Source of the DNA: Promethearchaeota archaeon | Lineage (GTDB): Archaea > Asgardarchaeota > Lokiarchaeia > Sigyniarchaeales > SOKP01 | Assembly (NCBI GenBank): GCA_048938445.1 | Contig: JBHLME010000015.1 | Span: 1-49,634 of the forward strand | Reading direction: 5' to 3' | DNA: 49,634 nt | Shown: piece by piece, positions 15,937-22,874 of the stretch | Position numbering within the stretch: position 1 is the first letter of the stretch | How the letters are laid out: every line of letters begins with the position of its first letter | Made by a program: the position numbers and the translations under genes | The notes under the pieces: generated by a model | Told to the model about the DNA's origin: nothing | Databases searched by the model: none | Seen by the model: the letters and a program-made list of their open reading frames with translations, nothing else

Positions 15937-16971
15937 TTATTTAACTTCATAAATCCAGTTAAACTCATCCTTGATTTCTAATCGTTGAATTCCAGTCAAC
16001 AGATCATATAATTTCGTAGTTACTTCTCCTGGTTTTCTATTATTGAATATCTTCTCATTTTCTTCGATTTGAACTGAACCTATTGGTGTTATGACAGCAG
16101 CAGTTCCAGTACAAAAACATTCTGTACAAGATTCTTTAAACAATTCTCTGTATGATATTTTTCTTTCTTCTATTCTCAAGTAAAGTTTCTTTTCAGCAAG
16201 CTCTAAAACGCTTTTTAGTGTTATACCTTCTAAGATCGTTCCATCCAGTTGAGGCGTGGTTAGCGTATTATCTATTATAGCACAAAAATTGGCTGCACCA
16301 ACTTCATTGATATATTCTCTTTGAATTGAATCAAGATATAATACTTGAGAAAAACCACGTTGCTTGGCTTCTTTAGCGGGTTTCATTGTTCCTGCATAAT
16401 TACTGCATGTTTTTGAAAAACCCGTTCCACCAGGACTGGAGCGCGTGTATTTCTTACTAATTTCCAAATTAATTGCTTTAAATCCTTCTGGAAAATAAGC
16501 TCCAACTGGAGAAGTGAAGATTATGAATTTATATTCTTCAGCGGGTCGAATACCAAGCATTGGACCACTCCCAATCATTAAAGGTCGGATATATAAGGAG
16601 CCCCCACTCTCATATGGAGGAATATATTCTTCATTTGCCTTTACAACTGTTTTAATCTTTTCCACGAACCTAATAGGATCATAACTAGGCATCATAAGCC
16701 TTTCAGCGCTTTTGTTCAACCTTTTAGCATTTTCGTCTGGTCGAAAGAGCGTGATTTTACCATTCTTTGCTCTTAAGGCTTTCAATCCTTCAAATATCCC
16801 TTGTCCGTAATTCAAGACACATGCCGCGGGTGAGATTTCTATATTCCCTAAAGGAATGATATCTCCTTCATCCCATCTACCATCCTTATAATTTGAAACA
16901 AACATCACTTTAGTCTTTATGAAACTAAATCCAAGATTATAAAAATCTATTTTTTTACTTTCGATTTGCAT
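15937..16971 (-). CDS. ilvE: Branched-chain amino acid aminotransferase (fold type IV PLP)
   Basis: LNYGQGIFEGLKA, LFRPDEN, SLYIRP, SKTCSNYA (PLP Lys), EVGAAN, ILEGIT, TGTAAVITP; SD GAGGT at 16984-16980. Confidence 0.95.
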   Translation of the reverse strand: MQIESKKIDFYNLGFSFIKTKVMFVSNYKDGRWDEGDIIPLGNIEISPAACVLNYGQGIFEGLKALRAKNGKITLFRPDENAKRLNKSAERLMMPSYDPIRFVEKIKTVVKANEEYIPPYESGGSLYIRPLMIGSGPMLGIRPAEEYKFIIFTSPVGAYFPEGFKAINLEISKKYTRSSPGGTGFSKTCSNYAGTMKPAKEAKQRGFSQVLYLDSIQREYINEVGAANFCAIIDNTLTTPQLDGTILEGITLKSVLELAEKKLYLRIEERKISYRELFKESCTECFCTGTAAVITPIGSVQIEENEKIFNNRKPGEVTTKLYDLLTGIQRLEIKDEFNWIYEVK

Positions 16972-17248
16972 TTACTCATACCTCATTTTTTTATTTTCTA
17001 TCTATGTGGCATGACCCCTTGACAAAAACGCAATCCTTCTATGATCTCTTCCATATTAAACTCACGTTCAAACAAGATACTATCCCCATGATAATCATTA
17101 GAGAATAAGAAAAGATATTAAAAGGAGTCGCGATCTTGTTTTATAATAATACTGCTGCTACTGCTGCGATAGCTGCCGCTATAATGGAGCGTGCAAATGC
17201 ATTTACAGCTATTGCATTTTTTCGAGTATTATTAATCGAAGAGATCAT
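16972..17248 (-). promoter_or_regulatory. Structured ilvE leader region (candidate attenuator)
   Basis: Leader ORF, U-rich tract and several complementary segments (17238-17248/17041-17051; 17211-17221/17024-17034; 17101-17132/17029-17063; 17133-17141/17070-17078). Confidence 0.7.
17141..17248 (-). CDS. Leader peptide of ilvE, 35 aa: MISSINNTRKNAIAVNAFARSIIAAAIAAVAAVLL*
   Basis: Hand translation, ATG 17248 to TAA 17141. The last 14 codons are only Ile/Ala/Val/Leu. Not in the ORF track. Confidence 0.8.
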   Translation of the reverse strand: MISSINNTRKNAIAVNAFARSIIAAAIAAVAAVLL

Positions 17249-17271
17249 TAATATATAATGACATGAGCTTG

Positions 17272-17279
17272 AATATAAA
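17272..17279 (-). promoter_or_regulatory. TATA box for the leader-ilvE transcript
   Basis: TTTATATT 24-31 nt upstream of the leader ATG, the spacing expected for a near-leaderless archaeal transcript. Confidence 0.55.
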
Positions 17280-17384
17280 TATTACGTGTAAAATGGGAAA
17301 GCATACCCACAAAAATATGTCATTTCTTATTCATTGATAAAACCCATACAAATTAAATTAAAAAAAAAATATTAAATTATTTAA

Positions 17385-19001
17385 TTATACCAAGTATCCG
17401 TAAAACCTAATATTTTGTCCAAAAACCATTGAAATTCCATTTTTAGCAATTATAATATTGATCCATCCTTGTTCATTTTTACCAATATAGATTTCAAATA
17501 TTTCATAAATCTTATGGATCATTATATTAAAATTCAAACGTATATTCTCTACTTTAAAATCTATATTATACTCATTTATATAAATTGCTGATATTCCAGC
17601 TACACAAGCATCATCATTTTTTATTTTACCGAATCCTTCAAGCATTCTTCGGTTCAATAACCAATCATAAGTGATCACACTTACATCATCTTCGCTATAC
17701 TCGCCAAAATAGACATCTAAGTGCCCATACTCCGGTAACATTATTCCTGTAAAATCCGGATTAGCAATTCCATTTATAAAACGAAAATCACCACTTCCAT
17801 TTCCAAAAATACCACTAGTGAATGCTATAAGAGGAATATCCACCTCAGAATAATGATCATCGAAATCATATGGTATATATGGACAATCATCCCAATCGGA
17901 TATAGCTGCAGATTCCAATCCTAACCGACTAGGCCACCAATTATCGAATTGGGCATTTTGATGTATCATCACGAAAGGATCTCCATAACCTCCATAAAGA
18001 TTACTTACACCTCCAGGCCCCCACGCAAAATAAATAGCAAAAGTTAGATATTCAGCTATATTATTCCATGGTAAATTAGTATATGGATTTATCTCAGGTT
18101 GAAGGGGTACTCCTATGGGAAATTCAGCAGGTGCTCCTGGATTTTGATCACCATATTGAAGTACAAATATTGATTCAGGTCTAGTACCCATGAATCGTGC
18201 CCATTCTCCTGTCTCTTTCATGAACTCGATCGAGGAAGTTAAATTCACGCTATTAGTGACCAAATCGGGGTATTTTGTTCCCGTTCCACCATCCAGTAAG
18301 ATAATTCCTTTTAAATCATCTTCCCAAAATAATGAAGCATGATTCATTGTTGCTCTTCCACCAAAGCTTTGACCCGCCATATAGATTTTTTCTACACCAG
18401 AAGTTTCTTTTGCCAGATCAACAGCTTCCTTTATATCACTCATCCATTGTTCCCAACCCCAATCAGACATGAAAGAAAGTTGTTCAGTAGTGAGATAATC
18501 AGGTACGAAATGTGTCCTGTAATCTATAGCATATACATCAAAATCCTTATTTGCTAGGTAATAAGGTAATGAATAATTTTCATACATCGTCCACCAATCT
18601 TCAGGTGGATTTGAAATTAATTGCTCTCCATTCATCCAAGTTCCAGGACAAAAAAAAATAACTCCTTTAGGATCGATGCCTTCCTTGACAACTCTATGTA
18701 GTCCTATTTTATCAAATGGACCATATGGTGCTCTTTCCATCTGCCAAACATATTCTTTCAATTCAGGATAAGCTTTAATCCCACGAGCATTAAAAATATT
18801 TACCCAATTAGATATTAAAGATTCCGAATATGCATCATCACTAATCGAGAGAATATTTTCACTTTTACTAAGTACTATTGGTCCGAAATAATGATTTTGA
18901 TCATTAGGATCAGACCAAGAGGTTATTGAAGTAATATAGTTGAGACTAATAAAAACCATACAAAGAATTAATGGGATTGCTTTAAGTTTTTTCATATTCA
19001 T
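17385..19001 (-). CDS. Secreted alpha/beta hydrolase (esterase/lipase-like)
   Basis: Signal-peptide-like N-terminus (MKKLKAIPLILCMVFISL); nucleophile elbow GQSFGG, AIDYR, YGHLD. Confidence 0.8.
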   Translation of the reverse strand: MNMKKLKAIPLILCMVFISLNYITSITSWSDPNDQNHYFGPIVLSKSENILSISDDAYSESLISNWVNIFNARGIKAYPELKEYVWQMERAPYGPFDKIGLHRVVKEGIDPKGVIFFCPGTWMNGEQLISNPPEDWWTMYENYSLPYYLANKDFDVYAIDYRTHFVPDYLTTEQLSFMSDWGWEQWMSDIKEAVDLAKETSGVEKIYMAGQSFGGRATMNHASLFWEDDLKGIILLDGGTGTKYPDLVTNSVNLTSSIEFMKETGEWARFMGTRPESIFVLQYGDQNPGAPAEFPIGVPLQPEINPYTNLPWNNIAEYLTFAIYFAWGPGGVSNLYGGYGDPFVMIHQNAQFDNWWPSRLGLESAAISDWDDCPYIPYDFDDHYSEVDIPLIAFTSGIFGNGSGDFRFINGIANPDFTGIMLPEYGHLDVYFGEYSEDDVSVITYDWLLNRRMLEGFGKIKNDDACVAGISAIYINEYNIDFKVENIRLNFNIMIHKIYEIFEIYIGKNEQGWINIIIAKNGISMVFGQNIRFYGYLV

Positions 19002-19184: not shown

Positions 19185-19469
19185 TTAACCAATAAAATCA
19201 TTTCGAGAACCCATTAAAGTAGTGGTTTCTTCTATCCATTGACCAAGATCAGGATCAACTCGGCAGAAGGTGACTATTTTATCTAAATCATTCAATTTAC
19301 TAAAACTACACTCAATTATTATGTCCCATCCACCATAGACCGGAGTAGCATAGGTTATTTTCCAATCTTCTCCTTCTTCTGCTGATGATTTTCCTCGCAG
19401 TATATTTGTTATCTCCCATTCTTTTCCAATAGTTTTTAGTCTAATCAATATATATCCTCTATAATAAAT
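19185..19469 (-). CDS. Small Lrp/AsnC ligand-binding (RAM)-like protein; start uncertain (ATT 19469 or TTG 19448)
   Basis: YRGYILIRL..VYGGWDII..DLDKIV..IEETTTL fits the beta-alpha-beta-beta-alpha-beta RAM pattern. Confidence 0.65.
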   Translation of the reverse strand: MYYRGYILIRLKTIGKEWEITNILRGKSSAEEGEDWKITYATPVYGGWDIIIECSFSKLNDLDKIVTFCRVDPDLGQWIEETTTLMGSRNDFIG

Positions 19470-19568: not shown

Positions 19569-22500
19569 TTACCAGTAAACTTCCTTCAAATTAGAATGGT
19601 AATCATTGAGAGATTTAACGACTAATTTTTTCTCCCTTACATTTTCAATTGCATCTACAATTGTTTTAGCAAGTTGTAAATTAATTATTACTGGAATATT
19701 ATAATCAACTGCCATTCTCCTGATTTTATATTCATCCTCAATTATTTTTCTAAATTTATCTTCCACGGTTGTGGGGAGTGGAATGTTGATTACCATATCA
19801 ATACGTCCTTCTTGCAAGCATTCCATGATATTAGGCTCCATTCCCTTTTCATGAACTTTATAAAGTCTCACGACATCGATATCATTATTTCTCAATGCTT
19901 TAGCTGTATCTTCTGTAGCAAAAATTGTAAATCCCAGATCTCTTAATTTTTTAGCAATTGGGATCACTTCTTGCTTTAATTCATCCCCTCCAACAGAAAT
20001 CAAAACATTACCCCCTTCCACAGGGATATATTGCTCAGCAGCTTCAAGAGCCTTTAGTAAAGCATCTTGAAAATCATCCCCAATAACTGCGACTTCTCCT
20101 GTACTATTCATTTCAACTCCAAGTATCACATCTGCTTTATCCAAGCGCATAAATGAAAACATTGGTGCTTTAACTCCAACGAATTCACCGTAAGGTAAAT
20201 TCAGTAATCTTTCTGGAATTTTTCCACCCATGATTACTTCCGCTGCTAATTTCATGAGGTTGATACCTCGAGTTTTTGATACGTATGGCATGCTCCGGCT
20301 AGAACGTAAGTTGCATTCAATAACAAATACTTCATCATTTTTCACAAGGTATTGAATGTTAAAAGGTCCCATTATTTTGAGAGATAAAGCAATTTTTTTT
20401 GTATAATCATCTATATCCTTCTTGACTTTTTCGGAGATTGTTTGAGGCGGCAGAGCCATCGTCGCATCACCTGAATGTACCCCCGCATTTTCGATATGTT
20501 CCACGATTGCACCTATTAGAACCTTCTCACCATCACAAATACCATCACATTCAACTTCAAGGGAATTAGTGAAAAATTTTGTAATAACGACAGGATATTC
20601 TCGCGAAACAGCTGCGGCCAAATCGAGCGTGTCATTGAGTGTTTTTTCATCATAACATACTCTCATTGCAGCACCACTTAAGACATAAGAAGGTCTTACA
20701 AGAACGGGATATTTAACCTTATTTGCGAACTCTAAGGCTTCTTCTTTAGTCGTTAGCATTGCCCATTCAGGTTGCTTAATTCCCAGTTGATCTAACAAAC
20801 CACTAAATTTACTTCTATCTTCTGCCATATCAACTCGAGAACCATGTGTCCCTAAAATATTTATGTTTGTCTTACGGTAAAAATCAGAATATTTTGCAAA
20901 CTTTGCGGCGAGATTTTGTGCAATCTGTCCACCAGCATTCAATACAATACCATAAGGTCTCTCTAATTCACATATGTCTAAAACTCTCTCTCCTGATAAT
21001 TCTTCAAAATATAAGCGGTCAGAAACATCATAATCTGTTGATACTGTTTCAGGATTATAATTTATGATTATTGCTTTATCAACATCTAACTTCTGTAAAC
21101 CCCAGAGACAATTTACAGAGCCCCAATCAAATTCAACGCTTGCTCCAATACGATACGTGCCTGAACCTAGTACAATTACTTTTTTCTCATGTTCTTCTTG
21201 ACTGTATTTAATATCATGTTTATTACCCCAATATGTTAGATATAAATAATGTCGTTCTGGAACACATTGACCTGCTAAAGTGTCAATTTGTTTAACATAT
21301 GGCACTATATCATATCGTTTTCTTAAACGTCTTATTGTTGGTGTATCAATACCTATAATTTTTGCTATTTGTCCGTCTGAAAAACCATATCTCTTTGCTC
21401 TAGTTAGTAGATGCTGTTTTTCTTCATCACTAGAGCCTAAGAAGTCTAACTGTTCAAGTTGGTTTTCAATATCAATAATATTTTTTAACTTATAAAGAAA
21501 CCACTTGTCAACTCGAGAGCGTTCATAAATTTCATCAATTGAAATCCCTCGTTTAATCGCCTCCCCGATTCTTAAAAACCTTAAATCAGTTGGGTTTCTC
21601 AATTCGTATTTTAATTCGTTAATATCTTCTATAGGTTTAATTTCATTTGCAACAAATCCTTTTAAACCAATATCTAGCATTCGAAGTGCTTTTTGGCAAA
21701 TTTCCTCAAAATTTCTACCAATACTCATGCACTCACCCACTCCTTTCATTTGAGGACCGATATGTCTATCTACTTTCTCAAATTTTGTCAAATCCCATCT
21801 TGGATATTTTAACACCATGTAATCAGTAGCGGGTTCAAAATTAGCTGTTGTTTTTAAAGTTATTTGGTTTAATAACTCAGGTAAAGTGTAACCTATTGCC
21901 ACCTTAGCTGCAATATATGCTAATGGATAACCTGTTGCTTTTGAAGCTAAAGCAGAAGATCTAGACAATCTAGCATTAATTTCGATGGCTCTAAATTTTT
22001 TTGAAAATGGATCAAGGGCCCATTGTATGTTACATTCTCCAACCACACCCACACCCCTAGTTGCCCGAATTGATGCTGAGCGTAGTATTTGTAATTCTTC
22101 ATCTGTTAAAGTTTGAGCAGGAGCTATAACTATACTGTCCCCCGTATGAATACCACAAGGATCTACATTTTCCATACTGCAATTAATGAAACAGTTATCT
22201 TCAGCATCTCTTAGGATTTCAAATTCAATTTCTTTCCAACCCCAAACACTTTCTTCAATTAAAATTTGATGGATTCTTGATTGTGCTAAACCTCTTTTTG
22301 CCATCCTTTCAAACTGTTCCCAATTGTGTATAATCCCTGATCCTTTACCTCCTAAGACATAAGCGACCCTTAACATGAGGGGAAATTCAAGTTCTTTAGC
22401 ATATTCTTTAGCTTCTTTATATGAATTGACTGCTTTACTTAGACATACAGGACAATCTGCTTCAGCCATTGCTTTGACAAAAAGGTCTCGATCTTCAGTA

Positions 22501-22874
22501 GCTTCTATTGCTTTTATAGGTGTTCCCAAAACCTTTATATTATATTTATCCAGGATTCCCGCTTCATGTAATTCAACAGCAACATTCAATCCCGTTTGAC
22601 CACCAAAAGAAGTACAAATCCCATCAGGTCGTTCCTTTTTTATAATTTCTTCAACATATTTAACATTTATAGGTTGTAAATATACTTTATCAGCCATCTG
22701 TGGATCTGTTTGAATTGTCGCAATGTTTGGATTTACTAGTATAGTTTCAATCCCTTCTTCATTTAAAGCCTTAAGTACTTGACTTCCACTATAGTCAAAT
22801 TCTCCTGCCTGACCAATTCTAACTGCACCAGAACCTAATATTAAAACTTTTTTTAAAGAATTATCTAAAGGCAT
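19569..22874 (-). CDS. carB: Carbamoyl-phosphate synthase large subunit, copy 2
   Basis: IGQAGEFDYSGSQ, NPNIATIQTD, HTGDS, EINARLSRSSALASKATGYP, NPETVSTDYD, RPSYVLSG, HSGDA, C-terminal MGS-like domain. Confidence 0.96.
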   Translation of the reverse strand: MPLDNSLKKVLILGSGAVRIGQAGEFDYSGSQVLKALNEEGIETILVNPNIATIQTDPQMADKVYLQPINVKYVEEIIKKERPDGICTSFGGQTGLNVAVELHEAGILDKYNIKVLGTPIKAIEATEDRDLFVKAMAEADCPVCLSKAVNSYKEAKEYAKELEFPLMLRVAYVLGGKGSGIIHNWEQFERMAKRGLAQSRIHQILIEESVWGWKEIEFEILRDAEDNCFINCSMENVDPCGIHTGDSIVIAPAQTLTDEELQILRSASIRATRGVGVVGECNIQWALDPFSKKFRAIEINARLSRSSALASKATGYPLAYIAAKVAIGYTLPELLNQITLKTTANFEPATDYMVLKYPRWDLTKFEKVDRHIGPQMKGVGECMSIGRNFEEICQKALRMLDIGLKGFVANEIKPIEDINELKYELRNPTDLRFLRIGEAIKRGISIDEIYERSRVDKWFLYKLKNIIDIENQLEQLDFLGSSDEEKQHLLTRAKRYGFSDGQIAKIIGIDTPTIRRLRKRYDIVPYVKQIDTLAGQCVPERHYLYLTYWGNKHDIKYSQEEHEKKVIVLGSGTYRIGASVEFDWGSVNCLWGLQKLDVDKAIIINYNPETVSTDYDVSDRLYFEELSGERVLDICELERPYGIVLNAGGQIAQNLAAKFAKYSDFYRKTNINILGTHGSRVDMAEDRSKFSGLLDQLGIKQPEWAMLTTKEEALEFANKVKYPVLVRPSYVLSGAAMRVCYDEKTLNDTLDLAAAVSREYPVVITKFFTNSLEVECDGICDGEKVLIGAIVEHIENAGVHSGDATMALPPQTISEKVKKDIDDYTKKIALSLKIMGPFNIQYLVKNDEVFVIECNLRSSRSMPYVSKTRGINLMKLAAEVIMGGKIPERLLNLPYGEFVGVKAPMFSFMRLDKADVILGVEMNSTGEVAVIGDDFQDALLKALEAAEQYIPVEGGNVLISVGGDELKQEVIPIAKKLRDLGFTIFATEDTAKALRNNDIDVVRLYKVHEKGMEPNIMECLQEGRIDMVINIPLPTTVEDKFRKIIEDEYKIRRMAVDYNIPVIINLQLAKTIVDAIENVREKKLVVKSLNDYHSNLKEVYW

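Follow-up and report, generated by a model that had tools for sequence, protein, structure and literature searches.

A re-codable leader RNA before an Asgard branched-chain aminotransferase gene: a candidate ribosome-read gauge of charged tRNA

Could a translating ribosome report the supply of charged tRNA to a gene in an archaeon? This question is raised by a locus in a 49,634-nt stretch of DNA from a Promethearchaeota archaeon (contig JBHLME010000015.1; the whole stretch is called the window below), in which a short open reading frame (ORF) ending in codons for aliphatic amino acids lies upstream of ilvE-2, a gene for a branched-chain aminotransferase (BCAT). Ribosome-mediated attenuation is the textbook proof of physical transcription–translation coupling in bacteria, and Asgard archaea, formally named Promethearchaeati, are the closest prokaryotic relatives of eukaryotes. 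The host had been proposed to be an Asgard archaeon, which agrees with its nearest named relatives, Promethearchaeota/Promethearchaeia and ‘Hermodarchaeota’ metagenome-assembled genomes (MAGs). The original prediction, made from the letters of the window, took the ORF for a translation-coupled amino-acid sensor. In the present analysis a conserved ORF, a switch-like RNA and tails matched to the downstream genes all speak for this idea, and no terminator of the bacterial type was found to go with them. We consider it probable, at about 0.72, that a cis-acting, ribosome-read gauge of charged tRNA (Val/Ile/Leu, perhaps Ala) precedes ilvE-2.

The leader ORF and its relatives

The leader ORF is encoded on the same strand as ilvE-2, with 169 nt (16972-17140) between its stop codon and the ilvE ATG, and its final 14 residues are Ile, Ala, Val or Leu without exception (14/14). 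The 35 codons, this gap, the 14 aliphatic codons and a TATA box at 24-31 nt had been described before and were all found again. No Shine–Dalgarno-like sequence was seen upstream of the leader ATG, and the spacing of the TATA box implies a transcript starting at or within a few nucleotides of the AUG; the AUG of a leaderless ORF is thus the most likely start of transcription. Boxes resembling TTTAAAT or TTTATAT stand at a similar distance in most of 49 copies of the leader (by eye, uncounted), and near-leaderless initiation, as suggested earlier, fits the TATA spacing, again by eye, in most such loci.

A tail of this composition is exceptional in the host genome (4.63 Mb, 31% GC, 96.5%-complete). 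Among its 19,176 short ORFs (ATG start, 20-45 codons, six frames, whole genome), only two had tails with at least 13/14 A/I/V/L residues, namely the window leader, the most extreme with 14/14, and, on contig C141, a sister leader belonging to the same RNA family. Ala, Val, Ile and Leu make up 4.8%, 5.0%, 10.9% and 9.8% of the residues in long ORFs of the genome, respectively. Origin of the leader as a chance ORF is ruled out by its top rank among the 19,176.

Relatives carry the same kind of ORF. Related genomes (41) were searched for IlvE, and the 700 nt upstream of the gene were examined at 18 loci; at 6 of these 18, window included, a 30-37-codon ORF lies between -160 and -290, and all six ORFs share a start (M-I/T-S…N-T) and an A/I/V-rich tail closing in V-L or L-L. 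With three further ilvE-type leaders from named MAG contigs, nine sequences were aligned, in which ATG and stop fall in identical columns and every length difference is a multiple of three. No stop interrupts the leader frame in 9/9 sequences, whereas each of the two remaining sense frames has 1-7; 11-15 codons begin with G, as compared with 0-5 that carry it at positions 2 and 3; and the GC content at third codon positions (GC3) is low, matching the genes of the genome. The check across relatives that had been called for found similar A/I/V/L-tailed short ORFs before the orthologous ilvE at 15 more loci, plus one at a contig end, so that the ilvE-type leaders number 17 with the window; they are 26-37 codons long. 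Their peptides have drifted in sequence but not in the composition of the tail: A accounts for 42%, V for 24%, L for 16% and I for 9% of the last 10 residues in 16 ilvE leaders, and 43 of the 46 Val codons of this class are GUA, though the genome slightly favours GUU.

One antisense frame is also open in 5/9 homologues. The 40-aa ORF found there on the plus strand of the window (17136-17258) is most simply explained by the GCN/GUN periodicity of the leader, which leaves that frame open. An apparently conserved TTG-start ORF on the minus strand (16998-17075, MFEREFNMEEIIEGLRF…) was set aside as a by-product of the RNA boxes R1/P2'b described below, from an alignment judged by eye.

The RNA chassis: re-coded tails and alternative helices

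The non-coding blocks of the leader are as well conserved as the ORF, and this RNA chassis could be followed with covariance models. Model R1, which runs from the last four codons through box R2 of nine ilvE leaders, found the chassis in 38/135 genomes of the family, with a second copy in the genome of the window. Model R2, rebuilt from 47 copies, found it in 106/151 genomes of the order, all from one family, with 105/131 in family f1 and 0/19 in three other families. The window scores 145.9 bits with model R1, to which it contributed as a seed, and 108.4 bits with model R2, and non-seed copies reach E = 1e-5 to 1e-24. In its own genome three copies are present, on C71, C117 and C141; BLAST of the leader DNA against this genome returned the leader itself only, and the paralogous leaders were found by the covariance models alone. 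A fourth match there (E = 2.5) has no leader ORF upstream and was set aside as probably chance. We read 92 copies (49, a further 42 from the middle and weak end of the model R2 list, and C141), with ~60 further matches lying outside this set. By script, an ORF was found to end at the same model position in 91/92 copies, and the window has the features of the chassis, i.e. a TATA box ~25-31 nt before the AUG, an M-I/T-S-N-N-T start and a stop at the fixed model position.

The composition of the tail tracks the downstream gene while the chassis stays the same. In 33 copies the gene behind is leuS, of archaeal and bacterial type, and Leu outnumbers every other residue among the last ten in 33/33 leaders (62% overall). 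Before ilvE (16 copies, with one more at a contig end), Ala leads the tail composition in 14/16 leaders and Val in 2/16. Val is commonest in 3/3 leaders before an acyl-CoA dehydrogenase, and Ile in the 4 leaders that were read out of 5 copies before an FrhB/FdhB-like protein. A 45-aa protein ending in IAW follows 18/92 copies, with Val or Leu tails, other small proteins follow 15 copies with mixed tails, and a PLP-decarboxylase-like gene follows 1. None of the copies read stands before ileS. Thus, the codon run expected of a sensor is present, as the all-Ile/Ala/Val/Leu tail of the window (14/14) and the Leu tails before leuS (33/33). The ilvE leaders form the sole Ala-rich class; they are longer than the others (26-37 codons) and contain an inner ORF hairpin. 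The Ala enrichment to which attention had been drawn in the window is therefore real and specific to this class, at 42% of tail residues.

Several of these leaders deserve description on their own. The C141 leader (L114:1432-1631) is Val/Leu-rich (MVFRNNTSKNTWFARVLGVVLVLVVVLLL) and small genes begin behind it at about L114:1656, the first for the 45-aa IAW protein, which has no Pfam or NCBIfam match, and the second for a protein of 66 aa in which the motif E-D-E-I-K-M…KKY occurs. The C117 leader (18667-18802, minus strand; L065) has a Val-rich tail (MLTNNNTKNTLSSVVVVDVVVVLL) and stands before a 413-aa acyl-CoA dehydrogenase whose best NCBIfam match, acryloyl-CoA reductase, is below cut-off; the ORF that follows resembles, by eye only, the beta subunit of an electron-transfer flavoprotein (ETF). 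At L148, L149, L151, L155 and L169, Ile-rich leaders (e.g. …SLSIIIVVVLII) stand before a protein that combines N- and C-terminal FrhB/FdhB domains with a 4Fe-4S motif and, at its cut end, a TrmB-like helix-turn-helix; it has no obvious link to isoleucine. At L097, in a relative (G051), the chassis has an Ala/Val/Phe tail (…NNAADAFMVAAFRAVVIL); the gene behind it resembles those of pyridoxal-dependent decarboxylases and is truncated where the contig stops. A subclass of six (L145, L152, L153, L161, L165 and L172) has a conserved peptide, …HNTT.SW.GYKRAFIP.VVL, without codon runs; the proteins encoded behind it, of 52-73 aa, contain an ILDYYKDWDSD motif and match nothing in Pfam. This subclass may be a nascent-peptide-dependent variant.

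The second property of the chassis is a set of competing helices, whose elements (Table 1) were derived from single-sequence folds, RNAalifold and local folds. The leader of the window folds with -73.9 kcal/mol (z = -3.55), and 1/200 shuffles was equally good. Arm P2a can pair with P2b, giving a hairpin of 12-17 bp with the U-rich box T1 in its loop, or with P2'b further downstream; box R1 is complementary to T1 and to box A, which includes the start codon and has box R2 as a second partner; and helix P_orf joins the Asn-Thr codons to the last three or four codons of the ORF.

These pairings were examined by a duplex test, in which the energy of two segments from the same leader (cognate) was compared with that of segments from different leaders for 55 segment pairs in 46 copies. 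Relatedness alone cannot make complementarity, and the other pairs control for composition. The cognate duplex was better for P2a:P2b in 45/46 copies (-18.3 vs -11.9 kcal/mol), for P2a:P2'b in 38/46 (-11.1 vs -7.5 kcal/mol) and for P_orf in 33/46 (-10.4 vs -7.7 kcal/mol), as well as for T1:R1 (41/46), A:R2 (39/46) and A:R1 (33/46). P2'b with the ribosome-binding region was marginal (29/46), and the remaining 48 pairs were flat, less than 0.75 kcal/mol apart. Within the 17 ilvE leaders alone the six pairings hold (12-17/17), compared with 5-10/17 for four control pairs. In the window, P2a can form isoenergetic duplexes with its two partners, and box A matches R1 perfectly over 11 bp.

Counts over alignment columns, in alignments that had been fitted to the structures, point the same way. 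For P2a:P2'b plus T1:R1, 82.2% of cells were paired, versus 72.8% after shuffling and 47-62% after sliding, with 93 double-change cells versus 31.6; for P2, counted at 49/50 loci (L076 and two antisense matches having been dropped by the E-value cut), the figures were 66.1% versus 61.0% and 36-55%, with 83 double-change cells versus 48.3. That the P2 count comes out weaker than the duplex test is due to its single fixed register of 19 pairs, which does not suit every class. From these comparisons of sequences, two sets of mutually exclusive helices, P2a with P2b or P2'b and R1 with A or T1, have been kept by evolution. From the leader AUG the helices extend to 50 nt short of ilvE, and this span speaks for a single transcript.

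The switch is also tied to the end of the ORF. In 47/47 copies the distance between the first base of the stop codon and the beginning of the 5′ arm of P2 is 0-7 nt, hence a ribosome that occupies this codon or the final codons of the ORF must lie over P2a; as far as geometry alone is concerned, the leader ORF adjoins the arm whose partner a ribosome would have to choose. Oligo-U is kept consistently only at T1, where a U-run of at least 5 is found in 38/47 copies and of at least 4 in 44/47; the window has U4, and its T1 begins 23 nt after the stop codon (17118). P2 and T1:R1 could coexist as a pseudoknot.

Table 1. Elements of the ilvE-2 leader and the linked gene, in window coordinates
Feature	Position	Strand	Remarks
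TATA-box-like TTTATATT	17272..17279	minus	24-31 nt upstream of leader ATG
Leader ORF, 35 codons plus stop, MISSINNTRKNAIAVNAFARSIIAAAIAAVAAVLL	17141..17248	minus	frame open in 9/9 aligned homologues
Box A, 5′ AUGAUCUCUUC, start codon included	17238..17248	minus	complementary to R1 (11 bp, -17.0 kcal/mol) and R2 (-11.7)
P_orf 5′ strand, codons Asn-Asn-Thr AAUAAUACU	17225..17233	minus	pairs with last ORF codons; cognate better in 17/17 ilvE leaders
Tail, 14 candidate control codons IIAAAIAAVAAVLL	17144..17185	minus	3′ strand of P_orf formed by last three codons (17145-17153)
P2a AAACAAGAUCGCGACUCC	17124..17141	minus	starts in last base of stop codon; partners P2b (-15.4 kcal/mol) or P2'b (-15.6)
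T1, U-rich box in P2 hairpin loop, AUAUCUUUUCUU in window, CUUUUUCU in most copies	17107..17118	minus	pairs with R1
P2b GGGGAUAGUAUCUUGUUU, 3′ arm of P2 hairpin	17070..17087	minus	
Box R1 GGAAGAGAUCAU, purine-rich	17041..17052	minus	complementary to box A and T1
P2'b GGAUUGCGUUUUUGU, alternative partner of P2a	17022..17036	minus	
Box R2 AAGGGGUCAU, second partner of box A	17011..17020	minus	
Shine–Dalgarno-like UGAGGU	16980..16985	minus	8 nt before ilvE AUG, after A-rich spacer
ilvE-2, leader-linked branched-chain aminotransferase paralogue, 344 aa	15937..16971	minus	

By NCBIfam the gene behind the leader encodes a class II branched-chain aminotransferase (NF009897, 424 bits at a cut-off of 307; TIGR01123 ilvE_II, 351 at a cut-off of 250), and the genome of the window and several relatives carry two IlvE paralogues. 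At 28 loci of the other copy no leader was found by model R2 with filters off, save a partial match of E = 0.33 in L022, in a search that left out three loci (L026-L028). In a maximum-likelihood tree of 50 IlvE proteins, midpoint-rooted for drawing only and with two sequences without upstream DNA labelled unknown, the 16 leader-linked proteins lie on one side of a branch with support 98/99, and the second IlvE of the window's own genome (C111) groups with the leader-less copies. With a single supported branch and leader-less second copies, the leader would govern a distinct ‘spare’ paralogue, here called ilvE-2. A search of this genome (96.5%-complete) did not find ilvD (TIGR00110), hence the standard branched-chain (Val/Ile) pathway may be incomplete; ilvC passes its cut-off, and the top ilvB-like and leuB-like matches fall short of theirs.

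Beyond the leader, the window encodes an alpha/beta-hydrolase-like protein of 538 aa whose N-terminal part includes a hydrophobic stretch (17385-19001, minus strand), followed by an 87-aa protein (19185-19448) and carB (19569-22874). The latter two directly adjoin the leader in L002 and L003, so the hydrolase gene looks inserted in the window and the leader stayed with ilvE.

Mechanism and rival explanations

If the leader is read by a ribosome, the segment 17011-17279 (minus strand) would comprise the promoter and a leader of ~240 nt on the ilvE-2 messenger. A ribosome would read the Ala/Ile/Val/Leu codons right up to the stop, which overlaps the first base of P2a, and P2a would then choose between P2b, in a local hairpin with T1 in its loop, and P2'b, in a long-range helix that extends T1:R1. 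The place and dwell time of the ribosome while P2b, R1 and P2'b leave the polymerase would lock in one fold, and the locked fold would set the amount of full-length, translatable ilvE-2 message. In our model, a ribosome held on the tail in starvation would keep P2a (and P_orf) unavailable as P2b emerges; T1:R1 and later P2a:P2'b would form one long helix hiding the U-run, and box A would pair with R2. With fast translation, P2 would close, T1 would be shown in the loop, box A would take R1, and the transcript would be ended or cut. The decision would fall at or near the U-rich tract, via archaeal hairpin-independent termination or cleavage. The leaderless start, the stalling and the read-out are inferred parts of this model.

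A decision at the level of elongation or processing is favoured by archaeal U-tract termination, by aCPSF1 cleavage and by the conserved T1. According to passages of PMC7515710, archaeal termination needs only a short U-rich tract, after which aCPSF1 cleaves, and the aCPSF1 of Lokiarchaeum terminates transcription in Methanococcus. As to direction, we lean slightly towards starvation turning the gene on, rather than plenty doing so, by analogy with the leuS leaders, because IlvE makes Val/Ile/Leu as the last enzyme of their synthesis, and because every conserved pairing then gets a role.

The same sensor could work with the opposite polarity, which we hold to be possible and rather doubtful. 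A ribosome close behind the polymerase would carry it past the U-tract when Ala/Val/Ile/Leu-tRNAs are plentiful, a stalled one would uncouple and leave U-rich RNA exposed to termination or aCPSF1 cleavage, and ilvE-2 would be catabolic and induced by its substrates. The combined reach of a ribosome and a polymerase about matches the distance from stop to U-run, and the sole conserved U-run (at least 5 U, 38/47) does lie just past the stop, with the U-tract 20-35 nt beyond the stop codon. A degradative set is suggested by the sister leader in the same genome, before the acyl-CoA dehydrogenase and the ORF that looks ETF beta-like by eye, the Val/Ile pathway may be incomplete as ilvD was not found, and a U-tract plus aCPSF1 mechanism is known (PMC7515710, in the passages cited above). 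However, the two conserved alternative partners of P2a would be left without a role, induction of leuS by leucine plenty, at 33 leaders, would be unusual, and the tract is only U4 in the window.

Other accounts do away with the gauge. The leader might be a structured cis-regulatory RNA that binds a ligand, a protein or a tRNA and merely tolerates an ORF not read as a sensor; its extensive conserved structure with covariation would fit, helix P_orf accounts for the conserved Asn-Thr and Val-Val-Leu codons, and much of the tail is predicted to be paired. But an open frame in 91/92 copies, with in-frame indels, fixed ends and codon periodicity, is unexpected of a non-coding RNA at 31% GC, the tail changes with the downstream gene on a constant chassis, and no Rfam family matches, which together make this account unlikely. 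At gathering thresholds Rfam gave 0 matches in the window, a tRNA/tmRNA scan gave 0 genes there, and a T-box-like element was rejected on Rfam alone, with no T-box search beyond it. An ORF that is translated and acts in cis, as a uORF (upstream ORF) that opens or closes the leader or as a nascent-peptide arrest element, and not as a gauge of amino acids, seems about as improbable: one subclass of the chassis does have a conserved peptide (…YKRAFIP.VVL) rather than codon runs, and all tails are aliphatic, yet Leu is commonest in 33/33 leuS leaders, Ala/Val/Ile dominate before ilvE, and the peptide drifts within the ilvE class. Less credible still is a functional small hydrophobic peptide, a membrane micro-protein or partner of IlvE co-transcribed with ilvE. 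The hydrophobic C-terminal half and the conservation of the ORF would fit such a peptide; against this, composition alone is kept and the sequence is poorly conserved, charged residues (D, K, R) occur within the hydrophobic part in many homologues, Leu- or Val-rich peptides on the same chassis precede unrelated genes, and the stop codon is locked to an RNA helix.

The gauge of charged tRNA that we prefer has to be weighed against several results as well, and those on the read-out weigh most directly. A bacterial promoter/terminator scan found 0 terminator-like sites in 16900-17420 (its sigma-70-like matches are irrelevant for an archaeon), and the conserved U-run sits inside the P2 loop, not after a hairpin. 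As archaeal termination needs no hairpin, a terminator function may persist in another form; terminators at the U-rich stretch P2b-R1 or at the U-run in P2'b were discarded, at least U5 being present in only 5/47 and 3/47 copies. No segment clearly pairs as cognate with the 56 nt after box R2 (the best, P2'b, with -8.1 vs -7.0 kcal/mol and 26/46), and masking by a ribosome footprint at three positions in equilibrium folding opens the ilvE ribosome-binding region in only 12-13/48 copies, a figure from thermodynamic modelling only, with the gene start mis-set in a few copies. Translational read-out by unmasking of the ilvE ribosome-binding site is thus unsupported by the duplex test and by footprint folding, and with neither a terminator nor clear pairing of the ribosome-binding site, neither of the two textbook read-outs could be demonstrated. 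The A-rich spacer in front of ilvE may harbour an internal promoter.

The tail itself raises further objections. Ala, its commonest residue, is not an IlvE product. Predicted ensembles place ~67% of tail codons -12 to -4 in base pairs within the ORF, with weak cognate specificity (13/17), and helix P_orf fixes the final 3-4 codons. Given this pairing, the GCN codons may partly serve the inner hairpin found only in the longer ilvE leaders, and part of the tail composition, according to these models, may be structural. Every tail among the 92 copies is aliphatic (L, V, I, A), with no polar or aromatic class, which could reflect the P_orf constraint (GUA/UUA codons) or a requirement on the peptide. 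Several downstream genes, i.e. those for small proteins and for the FrhB-like protein, have no evident tie to an amino acid, and the …YKRAFIP.VVL subclass replaces codon runs with a conserved peptide. Finally, in the Streptomyces coelicolor ilvB leader, mutation of candidate control codons had no effect, as stated in the part of PMC1262725 that deals with it.

On balance, we think the chances somewhat in favour of a broader proposal, that a single chassis with a leaderless mini-ORF, re-coded repeatedly (Leu, Val, Ile, Ala/Val/Ile), makes up an Asgard one-family ‘ribulon’, which would place spare leuS and ilvE copies, an acyl-CoA dehydrogenase set and several tiny unknown genes directly under tRNA-charging control, and the first ribosome-mediated attenuation in Archaea, operating without the bacterial terminator, probably by the U-tract plus aCPSF1 route, and adding alanine to the sensed amino acids. 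If this is true, a conserved multi-locus family would show that coupling is used for regulation in Asgard archaea too, and that it works with an RNA-polymerase-II-like enzyme and a CPSF73-like termination factor, so that the interplay of ribosome, polymerase and terminator becomes directly testable. For physiology, the leaders would mark genes tied to the supply of Val/Ile/Leu/Ala in organisms that are uncultured or hard to grow, among them a second BCAT paralogue and several unknown small proteins.

Comparison with known systems

Attenuators of enterobacteria include those of ilvL-ilvGMEDA and ivbL-ilvBN and the trp/his/leu/thr/phe class. Like the enterobacterial ilv leaders, the ilvE-2 leader has a short ORF that heads the messenger and, as in ilvL, a run of codons for several amino acids linked to the enzyme; like the enterobacterial attenuators in general, it has mutually exclusive helices with one arm that a terminating or stalled ribosome would cover. 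Unlike them, its ORF is leaderless, the control codons continue to the very last codon, and alanine is dominant. The archaeal switch consists of one arm (P2a) with two 3′ partners, whereas the enterobacterial one is a 1:2/2:3/3:4 chain, the archaeal leader is without a hairpin-plus-U terminator before the gene, and there is no homology in sequence or structure to the enterobacterial attenuators. The ilvE-2 leader thus has the sensor-like codon run and the switch-like helices of a classical attenuator, lacks its terminator and has no sequence in common with any of the systems compared here.

Genes for aminoacyl-tRNA synthetases offer a second comparison. Relevant parts of PMC1262725 name pheM-pheST of E. 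coli and classical attenuators predicted before leuS and trpS of Streptomyces. The Leu-rich archaeal leuS leaders (33/33) follow the same logic as these, but the bacterial synthetase attenuators have an explicit antiterminator and a terminator with poly-U, a form that the archaeal chassis does not take. In mycobacteria, leaderless polycysteine short ORFs make up the ‘Cys ribulon’ (bioRxiv 10.1101/834739). The resemblance lies in a leaderless sensory short ORF as first cistron and in one design reused at many loci, by which the ribosome makes a set of genes respond to one amino acid; unlike the mycobacterial Cys type, the ilvE leader did not show unmasking of a ribosome-binding site, the amino acids differ and the RNA is unrelated.

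Full-text searching of the literature found no report of leader-peptide attenuation in Archaea, and in the portion of an Asgard-related review that uses the term ‘leader peptide’ (PMC6393860), bacteriocin-type signal leaders are meant. In function, the closest systems are the multivalent ilv leaders of enterobacteria, pheM-pheST and the Streptomyces leuS/trpS attenuators, and in architecture the mycobacterial polycysteine ORFs. What is known is this kind of control by a leader peptide; what is new is the archaeal chassis, which is leaderless, terminator-less and re-codable.

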